Part shown: positions 1 to 64,000 of the stretch, in pieces
Layout of the letters: the number at the start of each line of letters is the position of its first letter
Position numbering within the stretch: position 1 is the stretch's first letter
IMG/VR virus record: IMGVR_UViG_3300028833_000053
DNA length: 64,000 bases
DNA from: a virus
Taxonomy: Duplodnaviria > Caudoviricetes
Strand: one strand, 5' to 3'
Translations under genes and position numbers: made by a program
Notes under the pieces: model-generated
The model's input: only the letters and a program-made list of their open reading frames with translations
Told to the model about the DNA's origin: nothing
Databases searched by the model: none

Positions 1-180
1 TTCCTCGAAGAAGTAGTATTTGGAAACAGCCTGCATGGCAACCTTCCCTTCGCGTTTACGTTTTCCGGTAAACAAGTTGCGCATCTCTTCTTGAACTTTC
101 TCATAGGGTGGCTTCTGGAAAATGCGCTATGTCACGTCTTTCCATTCTTCTTCGCTTCTCTATTCAATTGTTTCAGCCAT
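1..180 (-). CDS. Hypothetical protein, 5' part only (runs off the window); two in-frame TAG read as Gln
   Basis: ATG at 180, 9 nt after a GGTATAAT box. Reads MAETIE(Q)RSEEEWKDVT(Q)RIFQKPPYEKVQEEMRNLF... with TAG at 160-162 and 127-129 and no TAA/TGA to the window edge. Confidence 0.6.
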
Positions 181-238
181 ATCATATCAATTATACCACA
201 ATGTTTCATATTTGGAGAATAATGGTAAATAGCAGCGT

Positions 239-1747
239 ATGGACAATGAACAGGACATATACTACAACGAGTTTTTTGAGGGAATCCCACAAAATCTTTC
301 CGGACAGGAACTTCAAGCCTGGTTGGAGGAGAATCGGGACAAGACCTTCAAAGACCTTCCGTTGTTGAAGAAACTCACGAAGCGTGACATTTGGGAGGAC
401 AAGGCGAAATTCTACTTCTTGCCGTTTCTCATCAACTGCTATAACTTCACGCGACAGCACAAGCTCCCTTATTTTACGTTGATGTGTTCCCCAACGTTCA
501 TATTCTACCGTGACAGGTTGCATTTGAGAAATTGGATGGACACCATTCACAAGACGTTCTTCAAGTGCCTTGATATGGTCATTCCAAAGGGCGAGAAAAT
601 AATGCTTCTTGTGGAGAAGAGGTTTCACATAGAGAATCCAATTGCGGGTGGAACGCAACAACTATACAACATGCTTTGGGATTGCGATTTGACGCCCGAT
701 CCAAAGAAGGTTAGGATACTGGCAGAACAAATACCCACGTTTAATCCAGATATGCCTGTTGAAGGGGGTTTGGACTTGTGTAGAAAGACCCTTTGGCTTG
801 AGGACGATCTTCTTTTCCTTGGAAAGAAATACACGTTCATTGACCAATATGAGTCCGAGTATGAATATGATTGTGATGAGATTCTTGACCTTTCCAATTT
901 GCATGAAGATAGGCAACCGATATGGGAGAAAACGGCAAGGCACTTCTATTTCAAGGTGTTTGAACCGAAGGACGCAGGTGAACAGGAAATAATACCACCC
1001 ACACCGGATGAAGAAGATGATCCCGAATATGATGATTTTGACGTTGATTCCAGCCAGTCTGGAATGTTGGACTCCACATTGGACTTTGAGGAGGATGAAA
1101 GTGAAATGAACAAGATAGTAGCATTCTTTGCAAAAATGCCCAAAGTCACAGGACTTGTTCAGGGCATGTTGGATATGATGGCGGCGCTGGCCCGTATATT
1201 GCCGCTTGTTGCCGTGAAGTTGGAGGAAGACCCCAAACTTAAAGACGCTTTGGGAAAAACCGTGAACATCATAAACCTTGGCATTGGCAAGGTTCTCAAG
1301 ATTTGCGCATACCTCGGAATAAAGGTTGAACGCAAGGAGGGGGACGCCGTGAAGCAAATCGTGAAGAACCGATTCAAGAAGGACAAGAAGGAGTTCTTGG
1401 ACTACGAGATTGACGAGTTGAACAAGTCGCTTGACGCATTGGAGAAGGTTGACGATGAACCGGAAAATCCCAAGCCGCCAAAGGGTCAAATACCTTTGGA
1501 CGTGAAGCCAAACCACCTTTATCCGCAGAAGATGCCACTTGGTCCGCATCCACCACATCCAATAGTGGTGCCGCCTGAACCACCACCGGTTCAGGTACCG
1601 CCACCACCTCCACCAAAGCCACCCAAACCGGAGGATGACCCGCCATAGTCAAGCGAGTCTGAATTAAACCCGGAACCCCCACCAATTCCACCCGTGACGC
1701 CGGAACCACCAAACCATCCACCCAAGGACGAAAATGGAATATAGTAA
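239..1747 (+). CDS. Hypothetical late protein with Pro-rich C-terminus (502 aa with TAG=Gln)
   Basis: The track ORF stops at TAG 1646-1648, but the Pro-rich tail continues (SSESELNPEPPPIPPVTPEPPNHPPKDENGI) to TAG-TAA at 1742-1747. GTAAATA at 225-231. Confidence 0.75.
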
Positions 1748-1780
1748 TGTAAACACATCTAACCAACGAGGAAAATTGAA

Positions 1781-1951
1781 ATGAAGAAACTAAACATAAC
1801 GAAGGAGCAGTTCAACCGTATCAGCTACTTCCAGAGGAAATACGGCAAACTGGAGTGTGTGTCCGAATCAGGAAGACTGATCAAGACGAACAAAGGCAAG
1901 GTTCTGATGTTCAAGGAATCCACCAGAAAGTTCAGAAGGAAATTTGCCTGA
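1781..1951 (+). CDS. 56-aa MKKLNIT-leader family protein (leader only, no cargo domain)
   Basis: MKKLNITKEQFNRISYFQRKYGKLECVSESGRLIKTNKGKVLMFKESTRKFRRKFA; GAGG RBS; paralogous to the N-termini at 31391, 33106 and 50973. Confidence 0.8.
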   Translation: MKKLNITKEQFNRISYFQRKYGKLECVSESGRLIKTNKGKVLMFKESTRKFRRKFA

Positions 1952-1989
1952 TAGAATCATATGATTCCATTATTGTTGGATAAACAATC

Positions 1990-2019
1990 AAATGGACTGG
2001 ATTTCTCCAGTCCATTTTT
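1990..2019. terminator. Bidirectional intrinsic terminator
   Basis: Perfect 12-bp stem AAATGGACTGGA-TTTC-TCCAGTCCATTT with T-run, between convergent genes. Confidence 0.8.
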
Positions 2020-2022
2020 GCT

Positions 2023-3001: not shown

Positions 3002-4369
3002 ATGGCAGTTAACAACGATAAGCACAAAAGACCACCACCAAGACCTTATGGTCTTCCACCTCCGCCACCCCCGATGTATGGATACCCTCCGATACCGGGA
3101 ACCTATGGCGTGTATCCCTATCCCGGTGGATATGGAATTCCGCCCCCGCCTGCTCCAGAGCCACCACCTCATGTGCAGGAACCCCAGGAACAAGAGGATT
3201 TGACCCCACCCGATCCAACTCCAACATATGACAACAACGTGGTTGCAACGCAATCTTGGGTGAAGTCCATGTTGAACAAGTTCAGGGATTGGACGAAGTT
3301 CTTTGCCACCGAGCAGCTTGAGGTTGGTGGAACGATAAACGCAGGAAGGTTGAAGACGGTTGACCTTCAGACAAACGACATCTATGCTTCAAGGCTCACG
3401 TTGCTTGACCCCAACGGACGTCCGGCGCAAGTATACATTGACGAAAAGGGCAACCTTCAAATCAACTACGACTTCCAGGACGTGTTCATCTATCCCGGAC
3501 TTGGCGACGTGGAAATCAAGAGGTATGTGTACAGATATGGTTTCTTGCCTGAGCAGATTGCGTCCAACTTTGTTGGACTTACGCCATATCAGACACTTGC
3601 AAACTTCGTTCCCTATGACGCGACCGAGGCGAAGAAGTTCAACGACAAGATTTGCTTCAAGTTTTGCGAGGCGGATGGACGTGACGTTCTCATTGACAAG
3701 ACGATGCTCTTTATGTGCAACCAGACAAAGAGGATTGTTGGAATTGACGTTTGGGACGAGTACGGGGAGCTTATCCCACAGAAGTGCATTGTCCTGCCAA
3801 CCGACAAGGTTTACAGGAAGGTGACGTTGAACATGCCCAGCTTCATAAACGACATTCCTTTCCCATGTCCGCATAACCACGAGCATTGCCCCGAGCATGA
3901 CAAGACGCATGAGCAGGAACACGAGGCTGTTGCGCATAGTGAAGATGGAACTTGTGGCGAGACGCAAGATGGAAACTTGCATCCTGGACATGTCACAACC
4001 GGACACATCCATCATGGAATTGCCCGCGTGATTCTTCCTGGCGACTATCCAATGTCGGCAAGTGGCGATGAATGGGAGGCGTTCCAGCCGCCATACTTGA
4101 ATCCTTGCAGGCCGTCCTATTTGTGGCATCCTTCCCCGTTTGTACCACCGATGCCACCTCATCCATATCCTCACTTGACACATGACATCTACGAGGATTA
4201 CGGTGGGTTGACTTGCGAGGCGTTCAACAAGCCCTTGAACATAGAACCTGGCTACAAGGTTGTGTATGAGGACTATGAGACGAACACCTATTACAACATC
4301 TGCTTGAAGAGAAGCTATTTCCTTTAGAACAAAAAACAGTTCATTGCAATCAAGACGGCAGATGCCTAA
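3002..4369 (+). CDS. Hypothetical Pro/His-rich late (probably virion) protein
   Basis: Track ORF 3002-4327 extended through TAG 4325-4327 (QNKKQFIAIKTADA) to TAA 4367-4369, followed by a terminator. Confidence 0.75.
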
Positions 4370-4443: not shown

Positions 4444-6531
4444 TCAATAGTTGTTTCTTGACAAGATGTTGATGTTCTTGTTCACCACCCTTATTCTCTT
4501 GCGCAATTCGTATTCCGTGTTGGTGTAGAGAACCGGGAACATGAAAGGTTCAAGGCTGATGTTTCCACTGTGAATCTTCAAGTCGTCGCCAAGGTTTATG
4601 AGCGAGGTGTTTGTGGTGAAAGATGCCATTGAAATGCCATGCGTGTATGTTGGGTTCTCGTTCAATCCAGATTGATACACAGTGTATATGTCGGAAATGG
4701 CCGGCACTTTCTCCATTATGAGGTTCACGATGTCGTTTGTGTTGAAGGAGCCGAAACCAACTTGCCTGTTCTTCACGTTGAAGAAGTACGTGAACAATGA
4801 GCAAACGCGCTCAATCACTTCATATGACGATATGGAATAGTCGTCGTTCACGCGGATTTCCAACCATGAAGCATCGTAAGTTGTATCGTCCTCCTTGCGT
4901 ATTTGCGGAACAGTTGTGGAACGGTTTGATTGAAGATATTGCTTTGCCATTTCCTCCGGAACGCTGGAAATTTCACAACGTATTGGCAAGGCTGGCAAAA
5001 ACACGGGTTCGTGGCACAAGTCCTTTATGTCAACCATCATGGACTTGCAACGTTGAACCATCTGGTCGTAGTTGATGTCAGAAACGTCTCCGAAGTTGGT
5101 TATGTACCAAACATATACGTTGTTGGAGTCAACGGCGTCGGACAATGACGCGCCGCCATACTTCGTGAACCTTGCGGGGTTGAGGTAGAACCTTGGGTTG
5201 TTGTGCTTTGTCACGCCAAGTTGGTTCAACCATCGGTAGAACGTTGCGGCGTATTCCCAGTTGTTCATCACCTTCACGGAGTTGAACATGCCGTTGATGG
5301 AAGGTTCGTTCATTATGAAGAACTCGTAGTCCTCTTTTGTCACAAGGCGGTTGTTCAACTTGAACCAATGCGGAGCACGTTCCCGTATGTTCTCCACAGT
5401 TTCCTCTTGCATTGCGGACGTTGAACCGGTAAGAACCTTGCAAGAGATTTCCGTTACGTTGTATGCGTCCTCTCCGAATATGGCTCTGTAAAGTTCTTCG
5501 CTTATGTTGAACAAGGCGGGACCGTGCTGGAACTCCAATTCCGATGCACTCGGTTGAACTCCCCCATCCATGCCCTGCGTTTCCAGATAAAACACGTAGA
5601 GTTCAGAATTTGGCGTGAGTTTCTTGGTTGTGATGCCATCACCGAATTTCAATACCAGTTGTTTTATCTCGTTCAGTTCAACGTTGAACACGTTGCAGTC
5701 GTCGCCTCCCAAGCCATTGTACAAGAAATTGTGCAATTGGTCGGTGTCGTTCATGTTGGGAAGCCCCTTGAACAATCCCGCGTTTGTTGGGTGGAAGATG
5801 TTTATGGTGGTTTGCGTCCAATCAACTTCGTTGGGGTTGTCTGGCATCATTTTCTTTATGACTTCCACGGCGAAGATGTGTGAGGTTGTGGCGTATTTTT
5901 GCTCCGCCAGTTCGCTTCTCACCATTGGCATCACGAACGTCTCGAAGTCGGAGCCGTTCGGTGTGAAGATGGTTTGGTATCTTTTCCACATACCATTGTG
6001 CAGAACAATGTCATAGGGTTCATCTTCATCCAAGTTCCGAGGGATTATGCAGCTTTGCCACCTGTAGGGCGAATAGGAATAGTATTTTCCGCCGCTTGTT
6101 GTCACAAGCGAAAATGGTGGTATGCTAACTTCCTTGTCAAGGTTTGCCTTTACAAGTTCTCCTGCGTTTTCAATTCGGAACATCGCCGTTGATGGCGTTA
6201 TGCCCTGGGCGTTGTAGCCCAGCAACTTCGCTATGCGAACGATGTTCTCGTAGTATTGCGATTGGCTGAACATGGATTCGGACGCCGCGTGGTTCAACTG
6301 GTATGTCAAGGTTTGGTACATCGTGGCAACCAGGTCAACCAATATCGCTATGTTGGAACCTGGATATACCTAGTCCCTTGTAGCCGGGTCTTCAATCAAC
6401 TTCCTTATAATCAAGTCGCGCATTTGGTATGCGTTGAAGGTGGCGTACTTTACCGGAAAATCCTTTGAAAGCGAGACGTTCTCCTTGGAAAACCTCTTTT
6501 CGTCGTCGTAGTTTGTCTTTGAAACACTCAT
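4444..6531 (-). CDS. gp6: Baseplate wedge subunit, T4 gp6-like (695 aa with TAG=Gln)
   Basis: From ATG 6531: ...ATRD(Q)VYPGSNIAILVDLVATMY...ESMFSQSQYYENIVRIAKLLGY; also FGDG and ETVENIRERAP...NRLVTKEDY. TAG at 6370-6372 lies inside the conserved N-terminal gp6 motif. Confidence 0.85.
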
Positions 6532-6670: not shown

Positions 6671-7717
6671 ATGAAAGTCTCTGAAACAACGCAAAAGATA
6701 TATGATGGGATTTCAACCATTCTCAAGGAGAATGGGCAACCCTTGACAAAGGCTCAGGCGTATGCCATTGAAAGCCTTGTTGAGACGGTTGAGGAATCCA
6801 CGGAGAAGAGGTGCTGCGAAGTGACCGAGCAGATTTTGGCGAAGAAGGATCAATTGGTGAAGGAAGCCGAGAGCAAGGTTACGGACAATGTTGTTTCCGA
6901 GGCTACGATTGAAAAAGTCAACGCGATGGTGGAAAGCAGGATTGAGCAGTTGAAGAAGGAAATCCCCCAGGTGCTGGACTATGCGAGGATGAAGAAGCTG
7001 GAGGGCTGCGTGGAAACCATCAAGGAATGCGTTGGATACAGGGCTGACGAGCAGGTTGAAAAGGTGGCGAACGAAAGCGCGAAAATGCTGAAGTCCACCA
7101 AGACCCTGATTGAGACGCAGGCAAAGCAGATTTCTGAGAAGGTTGCATCGTTGAACGAGAGTACAAAGAAGATTGACGAACTGGAGAAGAAGGTCAAGCA
7201 GATGCAAATGACGATAGATGCGAAGGAAAAACAGATAGTTGAAAGCACGAAGAAGAACCTGGAGTTGGTAAAGGACGTTCAGGGGCTTCAGAAGAAAGTT
7301 GAAGAGAGCAAGAAGGTAAACGAGACGATTGAGGAAAAGAGGAAAAACGAAGCGTTGAAGTTCTATTTGGAACAGAAGATAGCAAGTTATCCGAAGTACG
7401 AGGCAACTCTTCTCAGAAAACATTTTCAAAACGCAAGGTCGCGGGCCGAGATAGATGAGAACTTCCAAAAGGTGCTGTCCATGGTACAGGAGAAAAGGGA
7501 CGCAATGAGGACGGTCCAGGCGATTCCGGTGGCGAAAGTCAACGTGAATGAAACGACCAAGAAAGAACAGATTTCAGGTGAAACTATTGTCGGAGAAAGT
7601 GGTGGTTCCGAACAGGAAGTGTCTGGCTCAATGCTGGATGATTCGTTCGTGGACATTGATATGGACAATGACGTAATCAGCAACGAACAGATGCAGAACT
7701 GGATGGACCGTCTCTGA
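6671..7717 (+). CDS. gp22: Prohead core scaffold protein, T4 gp22-like
   Basis: Charged coiled-coil protein directly upstream of the major capsid gene, with many hydrophobic-x-E-S/A/T sites (VEES, ANES, LNES, IVES). Confidence 0.7.
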   Translation: MKVSETTQKIYDGISTILKENGQPLTKAQAYAIESLVETVEESTEKRCCEVTEQILAKKDQLVKEAESKVTDNVVSEATIEKVNAMVESRIEQLKKEIPQVLDYARMKKLEGCVETIKECVGYRADEQVEKVANESAKMLKSTKTLIETQAKQISEKVASLNESTKKIDELEKKVKQMQMTIDAKEKQIVESTKKNLELVKDVQGLQKKVEESKKVNETIEEKRKNEALKFYLEQKIASYPKYEATLLRKHFQNARSRAEIDENFQKVLSMVQEKRDAMRTVQAIPVAKVNVNETTKKEQISGETIVGESGGSEQEVSGSMLDDSFVDIDMDNDVISNEQMQNWMDRL

Positions 7718-7758
7718 CATACTTCACACCAAAGCAAATAACAAACAGGTAAACTAAC

Positions 7759-9366
7759 ATGTTTAAGACAAACTCAGATTATCAGAAGAAGCTGCTCAAG
7801 CGTTGGGCGCCGATTCTTGAAAAGGGTGCGCCAATTGAGAGCGTCGAGAAGAAGCTCGTGGTTGCGCAGTGCCTTGAGAACACCCGCAAGGAGTTCTGCA
7901 AGAAGGGTCTCTTCACGGAGGCCGCTCCTTCCAACACGAACAACCTCGATGCACGTCATCCTACCTACAATGCTCCTATTTCTGGTCAGGGCGTGTTGAC
8001 GGCGAACGACTACATCCTTCCTAACGTTGTGATGCCTATGCTCCGCCGTATTTTCCCAACCCTCATGGCTCACGAACTCGTCGGAGTCCAGGCGATGACC
8101 GGTCCTACGGGACTTGTCATGGCTCTTCGTGCAGTTGCTGCTAACCCAGAGCGCGTTGGTCTTCCTCAGGGATATGAATTCGGCTACGGCAACAAGGGTC
8201 GTGCCAACCAGAGCATCTTCACGGGCGACGTCGCATCCAAGACCGCAGTGAAGGGTTATGGCAATAACGATGAGGAGAAGGAAGCCAACCTCATGAACAA
8301 GCTCTACAGAGAGAATGGTCCGCTTGATGAAATCGGCGCGTTCTTGAATGGTCAGTATGGTTCTCAGTCTGGCCGTGGCGTTGCTACGGGCAATGGCGAG
8401 GGCTTTGCAAGGGGAACCGATGGCACTTACACTGGCATTGATGGTAAAGATTATCCTTATGGAAATGGAGCTGGTGGTTATGCCAAGGGTTATGCCGGCG
8501 CTTCTGGCGACATTGACCCAACCTTCGGTCACTGGAGGAACAACACGTATCCTCAGGCTACCATCAAGTTCGAGAAGCGTCTGGTCGCCGCCGAGACCCG
8601 TAAGCTGGGTTCCGAGTGGACACCAGAGGACGCCGAGGACTTGGAGGCAATGCAGGGTATTGACCTTGAGACGGAGATGACCAACCTCATTTCCTATCAG
8701 ATTGGCGCTGAAATCGACCAGCAGATCAAGGAGTCCATGATTCTCGCCGCTTGGAAGGACAGCAAGGTTCTTGACGTTTCCAAGCTCGATGGTCTTGACC
8801 AGATGGGCCGTATCGCCGCGATGTTGACCTTCGTGACCCGTGAGGCTAACGAGATCTCCATCAAGACCCGCCGTGGCGCAGGTAACTTCGTTCTTGCTTC
8901 CACAACGGTCTGCTCTTGCTTGCAGCAGCTTGGCACATCCAAGCTCGTCAGCGATGGCAAGACGATGCCTTCTGTTCCTGCTTCCGCAATCGGAGCAATG
9001 ACGAAGGAAGGTCTCATCAACGATGGCCGTCAGTTGCTCGTCCGCGACACCAACACGTTCGGTTCCTACGCCCTCGTTGGCTACAAGGGAACTCACGCCG
9101 GTGACAGTGGTATCATCTACTGCCCATACATCCCTGTGACCCTCTACAAGGCTATCAAGCCTGAGAACGGCCTCAGCGTGATTGGCGCACGTACCCGCTA
9201 TGGCTTGGTTGACAACCCATACGATGCTGAGAACTTCTATTCTCTCATCAAGTTCACGGGCTTCGACCAGGGTTACAGCCTTGGAAACTCCAACCGCACC
9301 TTCTTCGGTGACGCGACGGATTCTTCCGACTCTAACTTCAGCCACCGTAGTGGTCTCATTGGCTAA
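7759..9366 (+). CDS. gp23: Major capsid protein, T4 gp23-like
   Basis: KRWAPILE...LEN propeptide, probable cleavage at FTE/AAP, PMLRRIFPTLMAHELVGVQAMTGPTGL, TRKL..EWT.E..EDL.AMQGID, TRRGAGNF, YCPYIP, RTRYG; strong codon bias. Confidence 0.97.
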   Translation: MFKTNSDYQKKLLKRWAPILEKGAPIESVEKKLVVAQCLENTRKEFCKKGLFTEAAPSNTNNLDARHPTYNAPISGQGVLTANDYILPNVVMPMLRRIFPTLMAHELVGVQAMTGPTGLVMALRAVAANPERVGLPQGYEFGYGNKGRANQSIFTGDVASKTAVKGYGNNDEEKEANLMNKLYRENGPLDEIGAFLNGQYGSQSGRGVATGNGEGFARGTDGTYTGIDGKDYPYGNGAGGYAKGYAGASGDIDPTFGHWRNNTYPQATIKFEKRLVAAETRKLGSEWTPEDAEDLEAMQGIDLETEMTNLISYQIGAEIDQQIKESMILAAWKDSKVLDVSKLDGLDQMGRIAAMLTFVTREANEISIKTRRGAGNFVLASTTVCSCLQQLGTSKLVSDGKTMPSVPASAIGAMTKEGLINDGRQLLVRDTNTFGSYALVGYKGTHAGDSGIIYCPYIPVTLYKAIKPENGLSVIGARTRYGLVDNPYDAENFYSLIKFTGFDQGYSLGNSNRTFFGDATDSSDSNFSHRSGLIG

Positions 9367-55093: not shown

Positions 55094-55094
55094 A

Positions 55095-55418
55095 ATGGCT
55101 AAATTGGAGAAACGTTGGATTGTGGAAACCACGATAGCAGAGAGCTGGGATGGGAAGAACGGTGCGCCAAACGTGTGCTTTGACACCTACGATGCCACAT
55201 CCCTTGAGGACGCAAGAATGTTTGTCCAGACCAAGATTGGGAAAATTGCCATAGACGGTGACAACAAGCTGGAATGGATAAAGTGGACTACAACGCAGGT
55301 TGAAGTCCGGTTCAACTATCCAAACGAGGGCGCGGGGAGGGTTCACCAAAACTACATCATGGCAATCCTGGAGGTTGACGAGAACGGAATCCTCAAGTAC
55401 GCCGAGATTGGAGATTGA
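55095..55418 (+). CDS. Hypothetical early protein
   Basis: GGAGGT RBS, 107 aa. Confidence 0.75.
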   Translation: MAKLEKRWIVETTIAESWDGKNGAPNVCFDTYDATSLEDARMFVQTKIGKIAIDGDNKLEWIKWTTTQVEVRFNYPNEGAGRVHQNYIMAILEVDENGILKYAEIGD

Positions 55419-55420
55419 CG

Positions 55421-55930
55421 ATGCAGGGACAGTTGCCCCAGATTGAACACCGTTCCGTTGATGACCCCGAGTACCGTGGCATCAAGGAGTGTGCCAATAT
55501 GATGTCCTTCGTGGAGTATATGAAAAGCAAGGACATTGAGGAGCTTCGTTTGCCGGTGAACAACCCCGAAGCCTACAACTACCTGCGTTGGCTCAACAAC
55601 TATTTCGTGGATGACAACAACTACCTGAATTACCTTCTCAACCTGTGGGATGAGAACTACGCCGAAAAGCCCGTGCGTCCGCCCACTGCGCGTGAGGTTG
55701 CCATTTTCAATTCCCGCAGGATTGTGGAAATTGCGGATTCTGACGAAATTGACGATAAAGGCATGTATATTGACTCCAACGCCGAGCTTATACGTGACGC
55801 ATACCAATATTGGTGCTACCCCATTTGGATTGCGTCCGGACTTGCTGGATGCATCATAAAGTGGGGGACGTTCGAGGACAACGTGAAGCCGGGTGAAGAA
55901 TTCCTCACATGGGAAGAGTGGAATGCATGA
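55421..55930 (+). CDS. Hypothetical early protein
   Basis: GGAG RBS, tightly packed. Confidence 0.75.
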   Translation: MQGQLPQIEHRSVDDPEYRGIKECANMMSFVEYMKSKDIEELRLPVNNPEAYNYLRWLNNYFVDDNNYLNYLLNLWDENYAEKPVRPPTAREVAIFNSRRIVEIADSDEIDDKGMYIDSNAELIRDAYQYWCYPIWIASGLAGCIIKWGTFEDNVKPGEEFLTWEEWNA

Positions 55931-56370
55931 TGGTCTTTACAGGGGACAAGCCAGGTTGGTACATACGCAGGGAAGATCCAATATGGAGTTGGGTTGGAAG
56001 CCCGTATGTGTCCCTTGAAAAGGAAAAGATGCTTTCGGTGTTGGGTAAGTTGAAGCGCAAGTGCAGCTACATTGTGAGGATATTCAATCTCACCCAGGAA
56101 TGTTGCCGTGATTGGCAGGACCGTGAATACTTTGAATGGTTCGCGGAGGACAAGATGTACGTGTTGCCAAACTACCTTGACATGTTCGTATCCGACCTCC
56201 ACGAATTGTCCTTGACGCACAACATAGTTGGGATGGCTACAACCAACAACTACCGTTATCTGGAAATGGCGTTTGTTGAATCCAATGACCATTCAAGCAA
56301 CATTGACTCTGACATTATCGACTCCATTGTTGGGAAAGTGAAGGGCCGGAAACATGAAACTTCGGAGTGA
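55927..56370 (+). CDS. ELSLTH/NID paralog family member 1
   Basis: LHELSLTHNIVG...FVESNDHSSNIDSDII. Confidence 0.75.
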   Translation: MMVFTGDKPGWYIRREDPIWSWVGSPYVSLEKEKMLSVLGKLKRKCSYIVRIFNLTQECCRDWQDREYFEWFAEDKMYVLPNYLDMFVSDLHELSLTHNIVGMATTNNYRYLEMAFVESNDHSSNIDSDIIDSIVGKVKGRKHETSE

Positions 56371-56821
56371 TTTTGTGAGCAATTCAAGTTCATCAAGTTT
56401 CAACTTGAAGCCGGGCGAGGTCAACCTGAAGCCGGGCGAGGACGATATGATTTTCAAGATGTCGTCTTCGGAGGTTGACAGAGTTCGCTTGTGGAAGTTC
56501 TTGACGAAGGAGGAGATAATGGATTCAATTTCCAAGTGGAAGTTCAAGGGAAATGTAATCCGGATTATTGACATCCTTTGTCCCGATGGAAGTCCCGAAT
56601 ACAAGAAGACAACCGTATATGGCGTTCCCAACCAGATTGACTTGATTGCGTCAAGGTTGATGGAATTGTCAATGACGCATGGCATATTGCAGTTGGGCGA
56701 GTCCTTGTGTGGAGACAACGCAATTTGGTTTGCGGAAACGGAACACTACACCACGAACATTGACGCCGACGTTATTGAGGGAATCATCGTCCGGTTGAAA
56801 CTGGGAGCCTATTATGTCTGA
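56354..56821 (+). CDS. ELSLTH/NID paralog family member 2, with MKLRSDFVSNSSSSSF N-terminus
   Basis: LMELSMTHGIL...FAETEHYTTNIDADVI. Confidence 0.75.
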   Translation: MKLRSDFVSNSSSSSFNLKPGEVNLKPGEDDMIFKMSSSEVDRVRLWKFLTKEEIMDSISKWKFKGNVIRIIDILCPDGSPEYKKTTVYGVPNQIDLIASRLMELSMTHGILQLGESLCGDNAIWFAETEHYTTNIDADVIEGIIVRLKLGAYYV

Positions 56822-57221
56822 CAAGAAACCTTGGATTTTGGAAGCGGGCAACGCCATTGAGTCTGAGTTGCACAACATGTCAATCGCCCTTGGTGCTTTA
56901 GGGGCGACGGACATTGTTCAGAATGACGGACACTTCACGCTTGATGACATCAAGTGGATGGACCGGTCGGACTTTCCCTTGGTTGTGAAGATTATCTTGT
57001 TTGAGAATGGAAAGCCGAGCCGTTATCTTCCAAAGACCTTTGCGGAATCGGAGCCCGACAAGTTCATTGACTATCTTGCTGGAATATCCTTGACGTACAG
57101 AATCATGTTCGTGAGGAACGGCTACATTTTCGTGACCGAGTCGGAAGACCACCAGACGAACATCAACGATTTGGTCATTGATGAGTTCTTGAAACTATAT
57201 CACAGGAGTTTCACCGACTAA
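56814..57221 (+). CDS. ELSLTH/NID paralog family member 3
   Basis: LAGISLTYRI...FVTESEDHQTNINDLVI. Confidence 0.75.
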   Translation: MSDKKPWILEAGNAIESELHNMSIALGALGATDIVQNDGHFTLDDIKWMDRSDFPLVVKIILFENGKPSRYLPKTFAESEPDKFIDYLAGISLTYRIMFVRNGYIFVTESEDHQTNINDLVIDEFLKLYHRSFTD

Positions 57222-57235
57222 GAAAGGAAGTTGAA

Positions 57236-57748
57236 ATGAATGGTTTTGATGAAAATGAACACGGCGCGTCCGACTACTATATGGCGGAAGACATTATACC
57301 AATGGTAAGGCGTGTGTTTCCAACGGTGGTGAACGCAGACGGAACAATGATGGGGAAATTCCCCCTTTCTGACAACGAAAAGCGCATGTTGTGCGACAAC
57401 AAGTTCTATTCCAAGAAGAGGATGAAGAAGCTCTTCCGTCAATGGAGGCCAAGTGGGCGCAGTGTTGTCATAAACCGCGCCATATACGATGGCGACAAGC
57501 CCATTGAAGTTGAGGTGAGTTCGTTCATGCTTCCGGAGGAAATTGATGGGTTCATGGTGAAGATGGGTGATTGCGCGGACCTTCATGGAATAGTCAAGAT
57601 TACTTCTGGCGGTGTAATGGCGGGTCCTACAATTTGGGTGAAGCCGGCGTCGAATCCCTCCGAGTTGAACATTGACTGCAACATCATGGATAAGATTATC
57701 ACCGAGGTTGTGGAAAGTTGGCGCAAGAAGCACAACAGGAGCAAGTGA
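57236..57748 (+). CDS. Early protein with gp23-like N-terminal segment
   Basis: ASDYYMAEDIIPMVRRVFPTVV versus gp23 ANDYILPNVVMPMLRRIFPTLM. Confidence 0.7.
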   Translation: MNGFDENEHGASDYYMAEDIIPMVRRVFPTVVNADGTMMGKFPLSDNEKRMLCDNKFYSKKRMKKLFRQWRPSGRSVVINRAIYDGDKPIEVEVSSFMLPEEIDGFMVKMGDCADLHGIVKITSGGVMAGPTIWVKPASNPSELNIDCNIMDKIITEVVESWRKKHNRSK

Positions 57749-57749
57749 T

Positions 57750-58157
57750 ATGATGGATTTTGAGTACATTGAAAAGGACATGTTTAGGCAAAAGTCCCTG
57801 TTTCCCCTGTTCCCGTACAGAATGGGAGAGGGGTACAAGTTCCTGAAGATGCCTTTTTGGGAAGGAAGCAAGGAATACATATTATGGGGAATCAAGCAGA
57901 ACCCGGGCTACATGGTGAAGATGGTGAATGTGGTCTATTGTGGCGAAGAACCTTGCTGGCAGCAGGAGCGCACATACGTAGCATTACCAGACAGGTTTGA
58001 CAAGTTCCTGCCAGACTTGATGGAGCTTTCCTTGACACACACTATAATTGGCATACGAGGGGAGGCAGTGTTTGTCTCTCAGTCGCTTGATCACAGCACG
58101 AACATTGACCAAGACGTTGTTGCTGCGTTCCAATACCTGTTTCTTGATAAGCATTGA
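57750..58157 (+). CDS. ELSLTH/NID paralog family member 4
   Basis: LMELSLTHTIIG...FVSQSLDHSTNIDQDVV. Confidence 0.75.
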   Translation: MMDFEYIEKDMFRQKSLFPLFPYRMGEGYKFLKMPFWEGSKEYILWGIKQNPGYMVKMVNVVYCGEEPCWQQERTYVALPDRFDKFLPDLMELSLTHTIIGIRGEAVFVSQSLDHSTNIDQDVVAAFQYLFLDKH

Positions 58158-58162
58158 GGGAC

Positions 58163-58229
58163 TTGACATTTTTCCAAAAACCTGTATAATAGGTGTAAAT
58201 AATCAACATACTCATATTCTAGGTATAAT
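58163..58229 (+). promoter_or_regulatory. Stacked promoters upstream of the topoisomerase operon
   Basis: TTGACA-16 nt-TATAAT (58163-58190), GTAAATA (58195-58201), GTATAAT (58223-58229). Confidence 0.65.
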
Positions 58230-58240
58230 GAGAAAACGAA

Positions 58241-60175
58241 ATGAAGACAAACAAGCAAGCAGAAGACTTTGAAGCCATAAGTGGTGTACAACAGATACTT
58301 AAACGTAGTGGTATGTGGCTGGGTAGTATGCAGCCTTTGACGCAAAAGATGTTCATGATTGGACAAGAGGGCGTGGAGTATAAGGAGGTGACGTACATCC
58401 CGGCTTTCCGCAAGATAATGGACGAGGTGCTTGACAACTCTGTGGACGCTTTGGTGAAGTACAATGGCAGCAAGGGCAAGGTGAAGGTTGTCATTGACGA
58501 AGGCTGGGTTTACATTGAGGACAACGGACCGGGCATTCCAGTCATTTGCAAGGAATTAAAGGACATCACTGACAACAGGATGACCGAGGAAGAGAAGAAG
58601 AAGATTTCCGAGACCTACCTGCCCGAGATTGCGTGGACGAGACTTTTCTCCGGCTCCAACTTCAAGGACAGCGATGACAAGACAACGGTGGGTTCACATG
58701 GACTTGGCTCCAAATGCACTTCCATTTTCTCCAAGAAGTTCGTGGGAATATCGGACGATGGCAAGAACCTTTGCAAGGTGGTGGCGAAGAACAACCTTGA
58801 GACTGTTGAGACGGAAGTTTTCCCTTCCAAGGAGCGTGGCGTGAGAATCAAGTTCGTTCCGGACTTCGCCAGGTTTGGCATCGACAAAATAGATTCAGTT
58901 TACGTTGAGTTGATGCGCCAGCGTCTCATCTGCCTTGGAATCACGTTCCCCGGCATAAAGTTCTCCTTGAACGGCAAGCAAGTAAACGTGAACGACAAGA
59001 CGTTTCTCAATCTGTTCAGTGACAACATCACGTTCCAGGTGTTTGACCGCGGCTTCATTGGCGTATATCCAAACGAGTCCGACGAGTTCAATTTCTTCAC
59101 CTACGTTGATGGTCTGGCGTTGAACCGCGGCGGCTCCCACATTGACTACATTGTGGACAAGCTGGTAACGCCCATACGGGAGAAGCTGGCGAAGAAGTAC
59201 AAGACCATCAAGCCAGCCGACATCAAGAACCGTTTGAGCATGGTGGTGTTTCTGCGCGACTTCCCCAATTTGAAGTTCGACTCCCAGACGAAGGAGACCT
59301 TGACAAACCTTCCATCCGAAATCACGAAATACTTTGGGGATTCTGTTGACTGGGACAAGTTGTCAAAGAACATCATCAAGAACGAAAACATACTTGACCC
59401 AATCGTTGAGACGTTCAAGTTGAAGGAGGAAGTCAAGGAGCGCGTTGCGTTGAAGCAGGCCGGAAAGTCCAAGGTGAAGATTTCCGTGGACAAGTACATC
59501 AAGCCCATTGGCGGCAACGACTATTTGATGGTGTGCGAGGGGTTGTCTGCAAGGGGTGGTGTTTCCGCCGCCATTGGACGCGAGGGCTTTGGCTACTACG
59601 CATCCCGTGGCGTTGGCATAAACGCCTATGACGCGACATCAGCGCAGATTCTCAAGAACCAGGAATTTTCGGACATCATCACAATCCTTGGACTTGACAT
59701 CACCAATCCAAAGGAGCAGAACCTGAACTTCAAGAAGTTCGTCATAACGTCAGATGCGGACGCCGATGGCATCCACATTTCCTCAATCTACCTTGGGTGG
59801 TTTATGAAGTTCGCCCCGTGGATGTTTGACAAGGGCATGGTTTGCCGTTTGAGGACGCCGCTTGCCATAGTGTTCAAGGACAAGGGCATGACGAAAATAC
59901 ACAAGATGTTCTTTGACCTTGCCGAGTTCCGGGAATTTGAGAACAGTAACGATATGTCCAAGTTCGCCATACAGTACTACAAGGGACTGGGTTCTTTCCC
60001 CAAGGAAATGTTCATCAAGTTGTTCAAGGAGAATGGTGGCGTTGACCAGTTCATCCAGACGTTCCGCCTTGACGAAGAGGGCAAGGTTTACATCGACAAC
60101 TGGTTGAATGGAAGCAAGTCCGACGAGAGAAAGAAGCTGATTTCGGACTACACGTTTGACATTGACATGATTTGA
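58241..60175 (+). CDS. gp39: Type IIA topoisomerase ATPase/TOPRIM subunit (T4 gp39+60-like)
   Basis: DEVLDNSVD, EDNGPGIP, GSHGLGSK, FDSQTKE, EGLSA, DADADG, YYKGLG. Confidence 0.95.
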   Translation: MKTNKQAEDFEAISGVQQILKRSGMWLGSMQPLTQKMFMIGQEGVEYKEVTYIPAFRKIMDEVLDNSVDALVKYNGSKGKVKVVIDEGWVYIEDNGPGIPVICKELKDITDNRMTEEEKKKISETYLPEIAWTRLFSGSNFKDSDDKTTVGSHGLGSKCTSIFSKKFVGISDDGKNLCKVVAKNNLETVETEVFPSKERGVRIKFVPDFARFGIDKIDSVYVELMRQRLICLGITFPGIKFSLNGKQVNVNDKTFLNLFSDNITFQVFDRGFIGVYPNESDEFNFFTYVDGLALNRGGSHIDYIVDKLVTPIREKLAKKYKTIKPADIKNRLSMVVFLRDFPNLKFDSQTKETLTNLPSEITKYFGDSVDWDKLSKNIIKNENILDPIVETFKLKEEVKERVALKQAGKSKVKISVDKYIKPIGGNDYLMVCEGLSARGGVSAAIGREGFGYYASRGVGINAYDATSAQILKNQEFSDIITILGLDITNPKEQNLNFKKFVITSDADADGIHISSIYLGWFMKFAPWMFDKGMVCRLRTPLAIVFKDKGMTKIHKMFFDLAEFREFENSNDMSKFAIQYYKGLGSFPKEMFIKLFKENGGVDQFIQTFRLDEEGKVYIDNWLNGSKSDERKKLISDYTFDIDMI

Positions 60176-60188
60176 GGAGACCGGAACA

Positions 60189-60629
60189 ATGACTACAAGA
60201 GAAAAAGCGATTGTGTCTGCGTACACTGGATTTCTAATGTGCGATATGTCAGAAATGCTGAAGTATATGTCGGAAAAACTTGGTTGGCGGATAACAGAGT
60301 CCGAGCTGCTCTCCAAGCACAGTGATTTTGAATTCAATGATGAACTTGACCAGAAGATTCAACCCGACTTTCTTGCATCGTGCGACAGAATGACGACAAG
60401 GGAAAAAGCCATTGTGTCGGCATGGACTAAATGTTTGATAGGCAGCATGGAAGAAATGCTCAAGTATGTGTCTGAAAAGATGGGACGAACAATGTCAGAA
60501 CAGGATTTGAGGAAGTATATGTCTTATGGCGAGTTTCATAAAAAATATGACGCGGCCATTCTTCCCGATTGGCTCTCGCTTTGTGAGGGTGACGCAGAAT
60601 CTACTGACAAGGCATCATGGTGGAGATAA
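60189..60629 (+). CDS. Hypothetical protein made of two tandem ~67-aa repeats
   Basis: MTTREKAIVSA[YW]T..L...M.EMLKY.SEK.G occurs twice. Confidence 0.8.
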   Translation: MTTREKAIVSAYTGFLMCDMSEMLKYMSEKLGWRITESELLSKHSDFEFNDELDQKIQPDFLASCDRMTTREKAIVSAWTKCLIGSMEEMLKYVSEKMGRTMSEQDLRKYMSYGEFHKKYDAAILPDWLSLCEGDAESTDKASWWR

Positions 60630-60645
60630 TCAAATGAACAAAAGA

Positions 60646-60676
60646 CAGAAACTAATTTCAGACTACACGTTTGACA
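60646..60676 (+). repeat. Diverged direct repeat of the 3' end of the topoisomerase gene (60131-60161)
   Basis: 27/31 nt identical; both copies encode KLISDYTFD. Confidence 0.8.
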
Positions 60677-60696
60677 AGGTATAATGGGGATTGGCT

Positions 60697-61116
60697 ATGA
60701 AGATTTTTATTATGGCAATAATGATGGTTCTTATTTTTGTGGTAAGTGGAAAGCAAGAGGATAATAGAATAGAAGCGACTAGGAATCTCCCAAAAGGGGT
60801 TCATATCACAGAAAGAAACTGTGAAGATTGTTGTGGTTCGGGAAATAAATGGATTGAACATACTGAATATGTGGGTGGTGGTTCAGCTATTATCGAGTAT
60901 AGAGATTCTGATGGGTTTCTATTGAGAAGAAGGTTTAAGAATTACACGAAACGAAAAGTTCATACAAAAGACATGGGCAGGGTGAAAGTCCCATGTAAAA
61001 AATGTAAAGGGACTGGTAAGAGGTTAACTTATGATAAGGATTATAATGACAAGCAAAAACCAGCCCAAGGTGTTACTCAGGGTGCTGGTTGGTACAATGC
61101 AAGGCTAAGAAATTGA
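60697..61116 (+). CDS. AT-rich hypothetical protein with N-terminal hydrophobic segment and CxxCxGxG zinc-finger pair
   Basis: CEDCCGSG and CKKCKGTG. Confidence 0.7.
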   Translation: MKIFIMAIMMVLIFVVSGKQEDNRIEATRNLPKGVHITERNCEDCCGSGNKWIEHTEYVGGGSAIIEYRDSDGFLLRRRFKNYTKRKVHTKDMGRVKVPCKKCKGTGKRLTYDKDYNDKQKPAQGVTQGAGWYNARLRN

Positions 61117-61126
61117 TGGATTAAGG

Positions 61127-62521
61127 ATGTTGAATAAAATGAACGAAAAGACCGTAACTGATTTCTACAAGGAGGAGGTTCCGTCATATGCCTCCTACGA
61201 CCTCATCCGCAAGTGCAGTTCGTACATTGACGGGTTCAAGAACGCGCACCGCAAGATTATCTGGACGATGTTGGAGTATTTTGGAAACCCCAACACGAGG
61301 ACAAAGACAAGCCAGATGTCCGCCACGGTTTCCTTGAAGTCAATGTACTTGCATGGCGAAACAAACCTTGACGGTTCCCTATGCACGTTGGCGCAGTCAT
61401 TCGTTGGCTCAAACAACTACCCATTGGTGACAGGGCATGGTAACTTCGGCACAAGGTTCTCTCCGGAGCCCGCCGCTTCACGTTATACCTTTGTTTCAAT
61501 TTCACCATTGGTCGGCAAGCTGTACGACAAGGACAGGCCGTTGTGCAAGGGTCAGGAATTTGAAGGCAACGTGATTGAACCTGCCTATTACGTTCCCGTG
61601 TTTCCAACTCTGTTCCTCAATGGCTCAGATGGAATTTCAACGGGATATGCGCAGAAGATTTATCCAAGGAACCCGAAGGACATACTCAAGTACATTCGCG
61701 CCAAGTTGAATGGAACCGCGGAACCCCACGTTGAAAACGCCTTGCCTTGGTTCAGGGGGTTTGCTGGCGAGACAAAGCTGGTGAAGGAGAAGGACGCCGA
61801 CGGAAAGACCGTAAAGAAGGTCGTGAACTATGGCGTGGTGGAGAAAGTCAATTCCAACACCCTGCACATTTCCGAAATTCCCATCACCTACACCTACGCC
61901 TCCTACATCAAGGTTCTGGATGGACTTGTGGAGAAGGGAACTATCGAGGACTACGAGGACTTGTCCGATCCAAAGACCGACAGGTTTGAGTTCACGATAA
62001 AGGTCAAGCGCGTGTTCTTTGAGAGCAACGCCGACGAGGCAAGTTGGATTAAGGTGTTTGGACTTGCCAAGCCCCTGAACGAGCAGTTGAACTGCATTGA
62101 CGAGAACAACCGCATACGCGAGTTCAACGACATCAAGGAAATCTTGGATGCTTTTATCAAAATACGTTTGGAATACTACAAGAAGCGTAAGGACTACCTC
62201 TTGAAGAAGTATATGGAGGAAATCCAACTTGACGTTTCCAAGTACGTTTGGTGCAAGGGTGTTATCGACGAGACCATCTACATCAAGAACAAGAAGAAGG
62301 ATGACATCGTAAAGCAGCTTGAAAAGACCGAAAAGATTATCCAAAAAGACGGCTCCTTCAACTACCTCCTGAACATGCCAATGTCCTCAATCACGAAGGA
62401 GAAGATGGCTGAACTTACGGAGAAGATAAAGAGCCTCAAGGAACTTATCAAGACAACCCAGAGCCAGACCATAGAGCAGATGTGGCTTGCGGACCTTGAA
62501 GAGATTGAACGCGAATTCTGA
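61127..62521 (+). CDS. gp52: Type IIA topoisomerase breakage-reunion subunit (T4 gp52-like)
   Basis: IDGFK..HRK, YLHGE, G.GNFG, AASRY (catalytic Tyr), NG.DGISTGYA. Confidence 0.95.
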   Translation: MLNKMNEKTVTDFYKEEVPSYASYDLIRKCSSYIDGFKNAHRKIIWTMLEYFGNPNTRTKTSQMSATVSLKSMYLHGETNLDGSLCTLAQSFVGSNNYPLVTGHGNFGTRFSPEPAASRYTFVSISPLVGKLYDKDRPLCKGQEFEGNVIEPAYYVPVFPTLFLNGSDGISTGYAQKIYPRNPKDILKYIRAKLNGTAEPHVENALPWFRGFAGETKLVKEKDADGKTVKKVVNYGVVEKVNSNTLHISEIPITYTYASYIKVLDGLVEKGTIEDYEDLSDPKTDRFEFTIKVKRVFFESNADEASWIKVFGLAKPLNEQLNCIDENNRIREFNDIKEILDAFIKIRLEYYKKRKDYLLKKYMEEIQLDVSKYVWCKGVIDETIYIKNKKKDDIVKQLEKTEKIIQKDGSFNYLLNMPMSSITKEKMAELTEKIKSLKELIKTTQSQTIEQMWLADLEEIEREF

Positions 62522-62539
62522 TTCGCGAAAGGAGTTCTG

Positions 62540-62773
62540 ATGATTGAACTTATTGAAACCATCTTGTCTTTCCCAACGCAGGGGCATTATGGCTATCCAA
62601 TCAGGATAGACGTGTTTGATGACAAAAAGGAATGGGAATGTGGAGTTTGGTCTGACAAGGATTCCGCCATTTCCTTTTTGTTTGATAAATGCGAGTTGTT
62701 CGACTATGTATTGTATGAATGGTACAGAGCGAAGGATGAGTTGTACATAGTGTTGGGGAGAAAGGAGTTCTAA
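62540..62773 (+). CDS. Hypothetical protein
   Basis: AAGGAG RBS, 77 aa. Confidence 0.7.
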   Translation: MIELIETILSFPTQGHYGYPIRIDVFDDKKEWECGVWSDKDSAISFLFDKCELFDYVLYEWYRAKDELYIVLGRKEF

Positions 62774-63441
62774 TGCCGAGGATTGAACTGTTCAATGGCA
62801 ATTGCCTTGATCTTTTGATGAAATTGGAACCGGAATCTGTTGATCTTCTTGTCACCGATCCACCATACAAGACCATTACGGGAGGGGATTCGGGAAACAG
62901 ACCAAAGGGCATGCTTTCCGGAAACAGAAAGTTGTTTGATCATCAAAACGACGTTGAGATTTACCAATGGATGCCTCTGGTCTACCGGGCATTGAAGGAC
63001 AATACACATGCATACGTGTTCACGAATTTTCTCAACTTGCACGAAATGCTGTATGAAGCCACACACGCGGGCTTCAAGTTGCACAATCTTCTTGTGTGGG
63101 AGAAGAACAACTGCACACCTTCCCAGTTCTACATGAAGAACTGCGAGTACGTGTTGTTTATGCGCAAGGGAAAGGCGAAATGGATTAACAACATTGGCGC
63201 AAGCAAGACCGTACACCAGTTTAACAACTTATTGGGAAATAAGACGCATCCCACAGAGAAGCCAGTTGACTTGCTTAAGTTCTACATTGAGAATTCAAGC
63301 AAGGAGGGTGACGTTGTGCTTGACCCGTTCATGGGTACGGGCTCTTGTGGAGATGCCTGCAGGCAGACAAACAGGAATTTTCTTGGAATTGAACTTGACG
63401 AAAACTATTTCAACATTGCAAAGAATAGACTGGATGTATAA
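62773..63441 (+). CDS. DNA N6-adenine/N4-cytosine methyltransferase (beta class)
   Basis: TDPPY, HPTEKP, DPFMGTGS. Confidence 0.93.
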   Translation: MPRIELFNGNCLDLLMKLEPESVDLLVTDPPYKTITGGDSGNRPKGMLSGNRKLFDHQNDVEIYQWMPLVYRALKDNTHAYVFTNFLNLHEMLYEATHAGFKLHNLLVWEKNNCTPSQFYMKNCEYVLFMRKGKAKWINNIGASKTVHQFNNLLGNKTHPTEKPVDLLKFYIENSSKEGDVVLDPFMGTGSCGDACRQTNRNFLGIELDENYFNIAKNRLDV

Positions 63442-63469
63442 TTCATATGGGGGAAGAAAGGACTAAATC

Positions 63470-63649
63470 ATGAATGGAAAACAGATTAGGGTGAAGAAAA
63501 CAGGCAAAGTTGGAGTGCTTGACCACACTCAGACGATAAATGGAAAGACATTCTACCTTGTGTGCTTTGATGAAAGCAACAAAAACATTGAAAATGGTGG
63601 AACGTTGAATTTGGTTCTATATAAAGAAGACGCGATAGAGTTCATTTGA
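63470..63649 (+). CDS. 59-aa hypothetical protein
   Basis: AAGGA RBS; MNGKQIRVKKTGKVGVL...EDAIEFI. Confidence 0.65.
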   Translation: MNGKQIRVKKTGKVGVLDHTQTINGKTFYLVCFDESNKNIENGGTLNLVLYKEDAIEFI

Positions 63650-63651
63650 CA

Positions 63652-64000
63652 ATGGGATTCCAATTGTACAATGACAATTGCTTGAAAATCATGCCGACTA
63701 TTCCAGATGGCTCAATAGACATGATATTGACTGATCTTCCTTATGGCGTGACGAACAAGGAAAGCGAAGCCGGAAAGTGGGACACACCGATTGCGATGGA
63801 GCCGTTGTGGGAGAATTTCTGGAGGGTGTTGAAGCCAAACGGCGCTTGCGTTCTTTTCGCCCAGGGCATGTTCACGGCCCAGCTTATGATGTCCCAACCC
63901 AAGAACTGGCGTTACAATCTCATTTGGGACAAGTGCCGGGCGTCAGGTTTCTTGAATTCAAAGAGAATGCCTTTGCGCCGACACGAGGACATTTGCGTGT
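63652..64000 (+). CDS. DNA methyltransferase (beta class), 5' part, runs off the window
   Basis: LYNDNCLKIM..IPDGSIDMILTDLPYG...WD..I...RVLKPNG...WDK...HEDI.V. Confidence 0.88.
   Translation, partial: MGFQLYNDNCLKIMPTIPDGSIDMILTDLPYGVTNKESEAGKWDTPIAMEPLWENFWRVLKPNGACVLFAQGMFTAQLMMSQPKNWRYNLIWDKCRASGFLNSKRMPLRRHEDICV

Follow-up and report, generated by a model that had tools for sequence, protein, structure and literature searches.

Late transcription in bacteriophage T4 is carried out with the late sigma factor gp55, gp33 and the sliding clamp, and T4 late promoters have the sequence TATAAATA. That recoding of a stop codon might serve as a timer in phages is a published hypothesis for which we know of no experimental test. 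An early/late code-switch model for TAG/TGA-recoded phages has been put forward (Borges et al., bioRxiv 10.1101/2021.08.26.457843), there is a survey of code-15 jumbo phages of rumen and gut that takes in T4-type portal genes (PMC13037316), and Peters et al. (PMC9523058) report glutamine at TAG in crAss-like phages by metaproteomics. In this work, the use of in-frame TAG codons was analysed in a 64,000-nucleotide (nt) stretch of viral DNA (IMG/VR record IMGVR_UViG_3300028833_000053; hereafter the window), which is part of a T4-like phage of ~415 kb and ~47% GC. Taken as a whole, the evidence makes it probable that TAG use in this code-15 phage follows transcription class, as marked by two promoter motifs, GTAAATA and a sigma70-like promoter.

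Searches against PHROG and Pfam identified a T4-type gene set in the window which, besides the genes listed in Table 1, includes both topoisomerase II subunits, two DNA methyltransferases, DnaJ, MetK, Hsp20, an endolysin and a tail-repeat protein. Relatives of the capsid protein were found in IMG/VR, among them two complete, terminally redundant genomes, G1 (414,060 bp) and G2 (418,068 bp), both with terminal repeats and syntenic with most of the window at 65–90% DNA identity. No match was returned when 22 kb of the window served as a megablast query on the phage collection. Curated gene calling with code 15 gave 67 window genes, 18 of which contain in-frame TAG, and codon totals of 43 in-frame TAG and 593 CAG/CAA. 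The TA dinucleotide is strongly depleted (372 TAA and 275 TAG against 1718 TGA trinucleotides in the 64 kb), as a result of which long spurious open reading frames (ORFs) occur in all six frames.

TAG is most likely a glutamine codon

Under the standard code many reading frames of the window are broken at TAG. When TAG is read through, the pieces join into frames ending only at TAA or TGA, and all 43 confident ORFs checked terminate with a stop other than TAG (22 TGA and 21 TAA). The frames stay open with coding-like codon use across the TAGs, and stretches of ~100 codons between successive TAGs contain neither TAA nor TGA, though TGA is the commonest of the trinucleotide stops. Orthologue alignments pass through nearly all of the window TAGs. 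Where a TAG lies near a 3' end homology runs on beyond it, as in gene 239..1747 past the TAG at 1646, and the phrog_219 match of the baseplate wedge extends across the TAG of that gene.

Glutamine was by far the commonest residue aligned to TAG in the relatives. Between G2 and G1 it was found opposite TAG at 42 of the 91 aligned sites where 5 or more of the 8 flanking residues are identical, set against a background glutamine frequency of 3.2%, and between the window and G2 at 9 of 16 well-flanked sites. The baseplate wedge TAG at position 6372 faces glutamine in all six orthologues within an otherwise identical 13-residue context, and the TAG at 15634 does so in all three orthologues. TAG is thus most likely a sense codon for glutamine, as in genetic code 15, and the window needs annotation with this code, as otherwise 18 genes fragment, including that of a 3585-residue protein.

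The eight genes in which the initial annotation had placed the first TAG at codons 7, 7, 9, 9, 16, 18, 21 and 23 were recovered exactly with the code-15 call, as was the total of 18 TAG-containing genes; in the same order, the eight start at 180(-), 25150, 35547, 46351, 15589, 31391, 20824(-) and 14875. Alignments with homologues extend upstream of the first TAG in seven of the eight, so that true starts downstream of the TAG are ruled out for these seven. In gene 1..180(-), for example, the G2 homologue aligned from Met1 with glutamine opposite the codon-7 TAG. The eighth, ORF 25150-25302, is considered doubtful because it has 50 codons, four of them TAG, and no homologue was found for it.

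Two other apparent TAG genes, both in the 52.2–64 kb block, were rejected as start over-calls. The TAG of the one starting at 54498 is part of a TTGACA-N17-TATACT promoter, and the true start is the ATG at 54573, preceded by an AAGGAG ribosome-binding site; the other started at 60746, with TAG at 60770. Both starts were corrected by promoter and ribosome-binding-site evidence. These two over-called 5' TAGs (54543 and 60770) and the doubtful ORF are what could be cited for an account without recoding, in which the TAGs are true stops and the genes start downstream of 5' TAGs, are split or are pseudogenes. Such an account can hardly be correct, given that conserved protein sequence flanks the TAGs on both sides with glutamine in the orthologues, that long stretches free of TAA and TGA separate the TAGs, and that a tRNA with a CUA anticodon is encoded in a relative.

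TAG density differs between promoter classes

The motif GTAAATA occurs 21 times in the window, compared with 3.5 copies expected from first-order Markov resampling, and for 18 of the 21 a start on the same strand follows within 150 nt, the median distance being ~40 nt (38–41). The extended consensus, aaTgGTAAATA, is identical in the window, G1 and G2, and the motif stands upstream of the capsid operon, the baseplate wedge, the endolysin, the tail-fibre-like gene, the giant protein and the virion protein. By its sequence GTAAATA is a T4-late-like promoter, a predicted variant of TATAAATA in which TAAATA is common to both. As a separate observation, TAAATA in the window is nearly always found inside GTAAATA (21/24). 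Sigma70 promoters that match the consensus at 11–12 of 12 positions are found mainly in the early block (52.2–64 kb) and before the small genes downstream of UvsW. Near-consensus examples in the early block are located at 53337-53309(-), 53352-53380, 54513-54541 and 58163-58190, and a GTAAATA copy at 53333 overlaps the -35 hexamer of the clamp loader promoter on the opposite strand.

It had been noted initially that 16 of 18 TAG genes lie in units behind GTAAATA. With units traced along same-strand runs, 17/18 TAG genes qualify but so do 47/49 TAG-free genes, and this definition was dropped given that it takes in nearly all genes. What does discriminate within the window is promoter type and distance: TAG is present in 11 of the 17 genes that come first after the motif, in 0/18 at run position 6 or beyond, and in 0/6 behind sigma70-like promoters. 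The sigma70-only class in the window comprises four genes, or six with two that also have GTAAATA.

Expressed as TAG/(TAG + Gln codons), the TAG fraction in the first gene after GTAAATA is 0.084 in the window, 0.088 in G2 and 0.087 in G1, and in the first gene after GTAAATA only it is 0.087, 0.089 and 0.087, respectively. At run position 6 or beyond the corresponding fractions are 0, 0.018 and 0.009, and in the first gene after a sigma70-like promoter only they are 0, 0.015 and 0.013. This test by promoter class, called for in the initial annotation, bore out a partition of TAG, with ~9% behind GTAAATA against 1.3–1.5% behind sigma70 in the relatives. Length-stratified permutation on the class difference gave p=0.008 for the window and p=0.001 for G2.

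TAG density also depends on conservation. The number of TAGs per 1000 codons drops from 3.4–3.6 in genes below 40% identity to 0.7–1.4 at 60% identity or above, with a Spearman coefficient of -0.27 to -0.28 (p<0.001) and a Poisson coefficient of -0.15 to -0.20 per 10% identity. This fall with rising conservation is what speaks for a reading in which TAG density has nothing to do with timing and reflects only how weakly a gene is constrained or expressed, TAG accumulating in fast-evolving genes and being lost from conserved ones. However, the promoter-class effect was present in every conservation stratum, including genes without an orthologue, and within each stratum genes at position 6 or beyond or behind sigma70 have 0–3% TAG, compared with 4–19% in GTAAATA-proximal genes. 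In a Poisson model that includes conservation, the rate ratio for first-after-motif genes was ~1.9, with a bootstrap interval excluding 1. The stratified tables therefore largely refute weak constraint as the sole cause, and we regard that reading as improbable. Conservation and promoter class both act, conservation being a second, independent factor. Its effect fits a costly, incomplete suppression, as the capsid and gp22-like genes lack TAG and neither release factor RF2 nor glutaminyl-tRNA synthetase (GlnRS) was found in the relatives.

Genes without TAG

The TAG-free set described initially was found again in full, comprising DNA polymerase, UvsW, DnaJ, MetK, the methyltransferases, the genes at 17.2–20.5 kb and the gp22/gp23-like genes. 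The 52.2–64 kb block is likewise free of TAG (0 TAG/83 Gln codons against 43/510 elsewhere, Fisher p=0.0037), with 0/18 of its genes containing TAG compared with 18/49 elsewhere (p=0.0016). The late capsid, gp22-like and endolysin genes are also TAG-free; the endolysin (2023-2916) has nine Gln codons, and no holin or spanin was identified in the window.

Recoded products had been described as tail, baseplate, protease, lipoprotein and co-chaperonin proteins. TAG is not restricted to structural genes, since a metallophosphoesterase gene (25519-26781) and a resolvase-like gene (15589-16290, the second behind the GTAAATA at 14846) also contain it. A further suggestion, that the TAG-free capsid gene could be gated indirectly through a TAG-bearing small GroES, fared no better. 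The gene in question (20513-20824) has no GroES family match in Pfam or PHROGs and shows no resemblance to the adjoining gene, the C-terminal half of which matches GroES and which carries no TAG, leaving this route to the capsid unsupported.

TAG codons at the 5' ends of genes

TAGs had been thought to cluster near gene starts. Of the 43 window TAGs, 10 are located within the first 25 codons of their genes, where within-gene shuffling predicts 5–6, a nominal excess (p ~0.015) for which the cut-offs were chosen after the fact. Pooled over each relative, the enrichment of TAG in the first 25 codons is 1.12 in G2 and 1.22 in G1, which places it 17th and 15th among the 62 codons. The 5' ends in G2 and G1 are AT-richer (GC 0.44–0.46 against 0.48–0.49), with AAA enriched 1.8–2.3-fold, GAA enriched 1.3–1.4-fold and both GAG and CAG depleted, and the 5' shift in TAG/CAG (~1.5) equals those in GAA/GAG and AAA/AAG. 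The excess in the window stands nominally. In the relatives the TAG shift is no larger than the general AT-rich codon shift at 5' ends, an outcome that the initial annotation had itself named as speaking against its reading. A general 5' clustering of TAG is not established.

A stronger form of the idea is that TAGs are actively selected as a gate, kept preferentially at 5' ends where they block late products until the suppressor is present, with the late sigma factor as the key switch. Within-gene shuffles gave a TAG excess of 1.5–1.9-fold for the first 25 codons of genes but no excess for the last 25. Eight G1–G2 orthologue pairs have TAG in the first 25 codons of both members, compared with 0–3 pairs in other 25-codon windows and 1.7 under a shuffle null (p ~0.001). 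The giant virion gene, one of these pairs, has a TAG at one or both of codons 9 and 12 in each of the three genomes (codon 9 in the window, codon 12 in G1 and both in G2).

Against this, just four of the eight pairs, the giant gene among them, have clearly homologous N-termini, and in these TAG swaps between neighbouring Gln sites. The concordance becomes marginal with the other 25-codon windows as a baseline for inheritance (estimated p ~0.03), the pooled enrichment in the relatives is 1.1–1.2-fold, the TAG/CAG shift equals the GAA/GAG and AAA/AAG shifts, and TAG is absent from the genes of the capsid, the gp22-like protein and the endolysin. Six of the 5' TAGs in the window could be aligned with an orthologue, and that of the giant gene alone is also TAG in either relative. 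Same-site TAG conservation between G1 and G2 (9 sites against 1.4–3.0 expected) was not used as evidence of selection because it is uncalibrated against the inheritance of synonymous codons.

A late sigma factor with TAG codons and a suppressor tRNA in relatives

The evidence most favourable to a selected gate comes from a gp55-like late sigma factor, which was identified in the relatives as phrog_234 (E 2e-19 and 3e-17) and is not in the window. Its gene is one of the pairs with a 5' TAG in both G1 and G2 and homologous N-termini. In all five related contigs holding the gene (loci L089-L093), one to three TAGs are present at codons 24–33 and none elsewhere, with the sites moving among neighbouring codons (24, 25, 26, 30 and 33). 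Codons 20–35 contain 10 TAG/7 Gln codons compared with 0/35 outside (Fisher p=1e-6, calculated on related sequences). The N-terminal extension is conserved at the protein level, and in G1 no ATG, GTG or TTG occurs between the TAGs and the conserved domain, from which it follows that the late sigma factor of the relatives could not be made without amber suppression.

For an indirect gate, the predicted late sigma factor is thus a more credible candidate than GroES, and its conserved TAG cluster is the lead most worth following. Even so, active selection of TAGs as a general gate appears doubtful. A narrower version may be entertained tentatively, in which amber suppression acts as a master switch in this clade: a selected TAG cluster in gp55 would license transcription from GTAAATA, and a few other genes, such as the giant virion gene, would keep 5' TAGs. 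If true, a change of genetic code licenses late transcription through a gp55-like sigma factor in this clade. A late sigma factor that requires TAG read-through turns a diffuse idea, in which many late genes are restrained one by one, into a single-gene experiment.

A tRNA with a CUA anticodon is encoded in G2 at 268611-268687(-). This tRNA gene has a TATAAT box to itself and is flanked by two terminator-like hairpins, which hints at transcription by the host polymerase. A BLAST search of the window with this suppressor tRNA gave chance matches only, and no sequence match to it was found in G1. The G1 'tRNA-?(ca)' was ruled out as a suppressor by its 6-nt loop. The release factor domain of RF-1/RF-2 (PF00472) and the GlnRS-type domain (PF00749) were absent from the three relatives searched. 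Both G1 and G2 also encode a transfer-messenger RNA (tmRNA; tags GNDYRMAA and GNDYSMAA) inside arrays of ~30 tRNAs (L042 8038-8370(-) and L043 9261-9596(-)), a feature of note in a phage whose TAG-bearing messages could stall or end early.

Proposed explanation for the distribution of TAG

In the explanation favoured here, approximately a quarter of the phage genes would use TAG as glutamine. Genes behind sigma70 promoters, and likewise small genes in long runs at a distance from any GTAAATA, would be essentially TAG-free and hence translatable by the unmodified host, whereas in genes just downstream of GTAAATA, TAG would make up ~9% of Gln codons and be decoded by a phage amber-suppressor tRNA. 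With neither a release factor nor a GlnRS of phage origin detected, the suppressor probably has to compete with host RF1, leaving suppression incomplete, and incomplete suppression would explain why TAG is avoided in conserved, heavily expressed late genes such as those of the capsid and the gp22-like protein. The partition may be mostly a constraint, with TAG arising from CAG and being tolerated only where the suppressor is already present. Incompletion of TAG-bearing proteins before suppression would then be a by-product. The recoding, the assignment of TAG to glutamine, both promoter motifs and the difference in TAG density between classes are shown by the sequences, whereas the times at which the promoter classes and the suppressor act, and any adaptive value, are inferred. 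The translational timing first suggested for TAG survives in part. Early genes are readable in the standard code, TAG genes need suppression, and the pattern is reproduced in two relatives; the 5' clustering and the role of GroES fell away.

Several points weigh against this explanation. The late timing of GTAAATA is suggested by its resemblance to the T4 motif and by the genes that it precedes. The motif is also found before Hsp20/DNA polymerase and topoisomerase II, beside sigma70-like promoters, and is therefore not a pure marker of structural genes. Among the window, G1 and G2, a CUA suppressor was found only in G2: ARAGORN detected no tRNA in the window, and in G1 (414 kb), which has 314 in-frame TAGs, no CUA tRNA was detected by ARAGORN, Rfam tRNA or a custom anticodon-loop scan. 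The window, G1 and G2 are related to one another, so that replication across them is not fully independent, and gene calls came from a home-made caller by which at least two starts were over-extended.

Features of the window

The coordinates of the features are collected in Table 1. The giant ORF is a single 10.8-kb frame without TAA or TGA, its codon-usage score remains positive over all 11 TAGs, and none of these is followed by a start or ribosome-binding site. The possibility that it ends at the TAG at 43359, where its orthologues end, was considered and rejected, as the codon-usage score stays positive and no start or ribosome-binding site follows. The C-terminal ~1000 residues (43360-46304) consist of BspA-type leucine-rich repeats (LRR) and Flg_new (Listeria-Bacteroides) repeats. 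The giant genes of G1 and G2 stop close to where this TAG lies, and LRR proteins are encoded by separate genes elsewhere. In the window phage a receptor-binding-like module thus appears to have been fused in frame via TAG.

Table 1. Coordinates of features in the window and of the gp55-like gene in G1 and G2
Feature	Position	Strand	Promoter motif	TAG codons and remarks
5' part of a gene, runs off window	1..180	-	no GTAAATA upstream	codons 7 and 18
502-aa gene	239..1747	+	GTAAATA at 225, 7 nt before ATG	1646, 1742
Gene	3074..4369	+	GTAAATA at 2955	4325
Baseplate wedge (gp6-like)	4444..6531	-	GTAAATA at 6570	codon 54 (6372)
gp22-like gene and major capsid protein	6671..9366	+	GTAAATA at 6631	none; 42 Gln codons
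Major head (capsid) protein	7759-9366			PHROG/Pfam
UvsW-type helicase and four small downstream genes	9430..12431	-	sigma70-like promoters end 10679, 10644	none
UvsW-type helicase	10680-12431	-		PHROG/Pfam
Gene	12473..13759	-	GTAAATA at 13796, 13803	13381, 13333
Two genes	14875..16290	+	GTAAATA at 14846	codon 23 (14941), codon 16 (15634)
103-aa gene	20513..20824	-		codon 21
642-aa gene	21510..23438	-	GTAAATA at 23481	23168, 21887
Tail-fibre-like repeat protein	23562..25121	+	GTAAATA at 23509	7 TAGs
Doubtful 50-codon ORF	25150..25302	+		4 TAGs, first at codon 7
Unit of three genes	25519..27693	+	GTAAATA at 25485	metallophosphoesterase 25519-26781 (codon 185); small TAG-free gene; 27088-27693 (27568)
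Hsp20 and DNA polymerase	27813..31337	+	sigma70-like -10 ends 27809; GTAAATA at 27718	none
Family B DNA polymerase	28404-31337			PHROG/Pfam
Unit of three genes	31391..33004	+	GTAAATA at 31347	31391-31882 (codon 18); TAG-free gene; lipoprotein-like 32663-33004 (3 TAGs)
3585-aa giant ORF	35547..46304	+	GTAAATA at 35532, 8 nt before ATG	11 TAGs, first at codon 9 (35571)
Papain-like peptidase	46351..47301	+		codon 9 (46375)
Virion structural protein	47421..50957	+	GTAAATA at 47376	codon 117 (47769; Gln in G2)
Early/replication block	52233..64000			none in 18 genes; clamp loader, topoisomerase II subunits, methyltransferase, small genes
Clamp loader	52233-53288	-		PHROG/Pfam
gp55-like gene	G2 323001-323642	-		
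gp55-like gene	G1 79305-79961	+		

Three GTAAATA motifs end 6–8 nt before the ATG that they serve (225-241, 2916-2935(-) and 35532-35549), which suggests leaderless or nearly leaderless late transcripts. Before topoisomerase II, no more than 5 nt separate a perfect sigma70 promoter (TTGACA-N16-TATAAT) from a GTAAATA downstream of it (58163-58201), in what looks like a tandem early-plus-late promoter, and the pairing of TATAAT with GTAAATA recurs in G2 at 268551-268563(-). A GTAAATA with the full extended consensus at 25460(-) points leftward into 25.1–25.4 kb, where no convincing minus-strand gene was seen. Genes 31391-31882 and 33106-33840 of the window and several genes of G1 and G2 belong to a paralogous family with the N-terminal motif EKS.YF..KYG.L, present in many copies per genome.

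Comparison with known systems

The window phage shares with the code-15 phages (Lak megaphages, crAss-like phages and the 'gemstone' clades) the assignment of TAG to glutamine. As in code-15 phages of gut and rumen, recoding is partial, with 26% of genes here compared with reported clade means of 26–71%. In common with such phages, replication genes are in the standard code and recoded structural genes lie in modules round the genome, a suppressor tRNA-CUA is encoded in a relative (G2), and a role for recoding as a timer of late genes has been proposed. Unlike those described, this phage is T4-like with ~415 kb, 47% GC and strong TA depletion rather than low GC, its two gene classes are labelled by explicit motifs (sigma70-like or GTAAATA), and no RF2 or GlnRS was found in the relatives.

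Early genes free of the recoded codon and recoded late genes, as in the code-switch model, are found here as well, with the phosphoesterase, the resolvase-like gene, the capsid and the endolysin as exceptions. Recoding of lysis genes, another feature of that model, was not observed in the window, where the endolysin is TAG-free; in crAss-like and Agate phages lysis genes are the most biased. Dual coding in crAss-like phages (Mgcod, bioRxiv 10.1101/2022.06.29.495998; Yutin et al., PMC7886860) likewise combines standard-code with reassigned stretches. There the two form large genome blocks, whereas here the two classes are intermingled down to individual transcription units.

As in T4, an A/T-rich -10-type octamer containing TAAATA precedes capsid, baseplate, tail and lysis genes, and gp55-like genes (phrog_234) are present in the relatives. 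The consensus is TgGTAAATA compared with TATAAATA in T4, and several copies of the motif, unlike those in T4, lie 6–8 nt from the ATG. The gp55-like gene of the relatives has an N-terminal extension of ~30 residues that carries the TAGs, and T4 gp55 is not known to have such an extension. In a limited literature search no report of a recoded gp55-type sigma factor was found.

The distribution of TAG described here is a clean new example of the published code-switch model and not a new model. The lineage is well suited to a test of it, as class membership can be read from promoter motifs in the sequence and the approximately six-fold difference in TAG between the classes survives control for both gene length and conservation.

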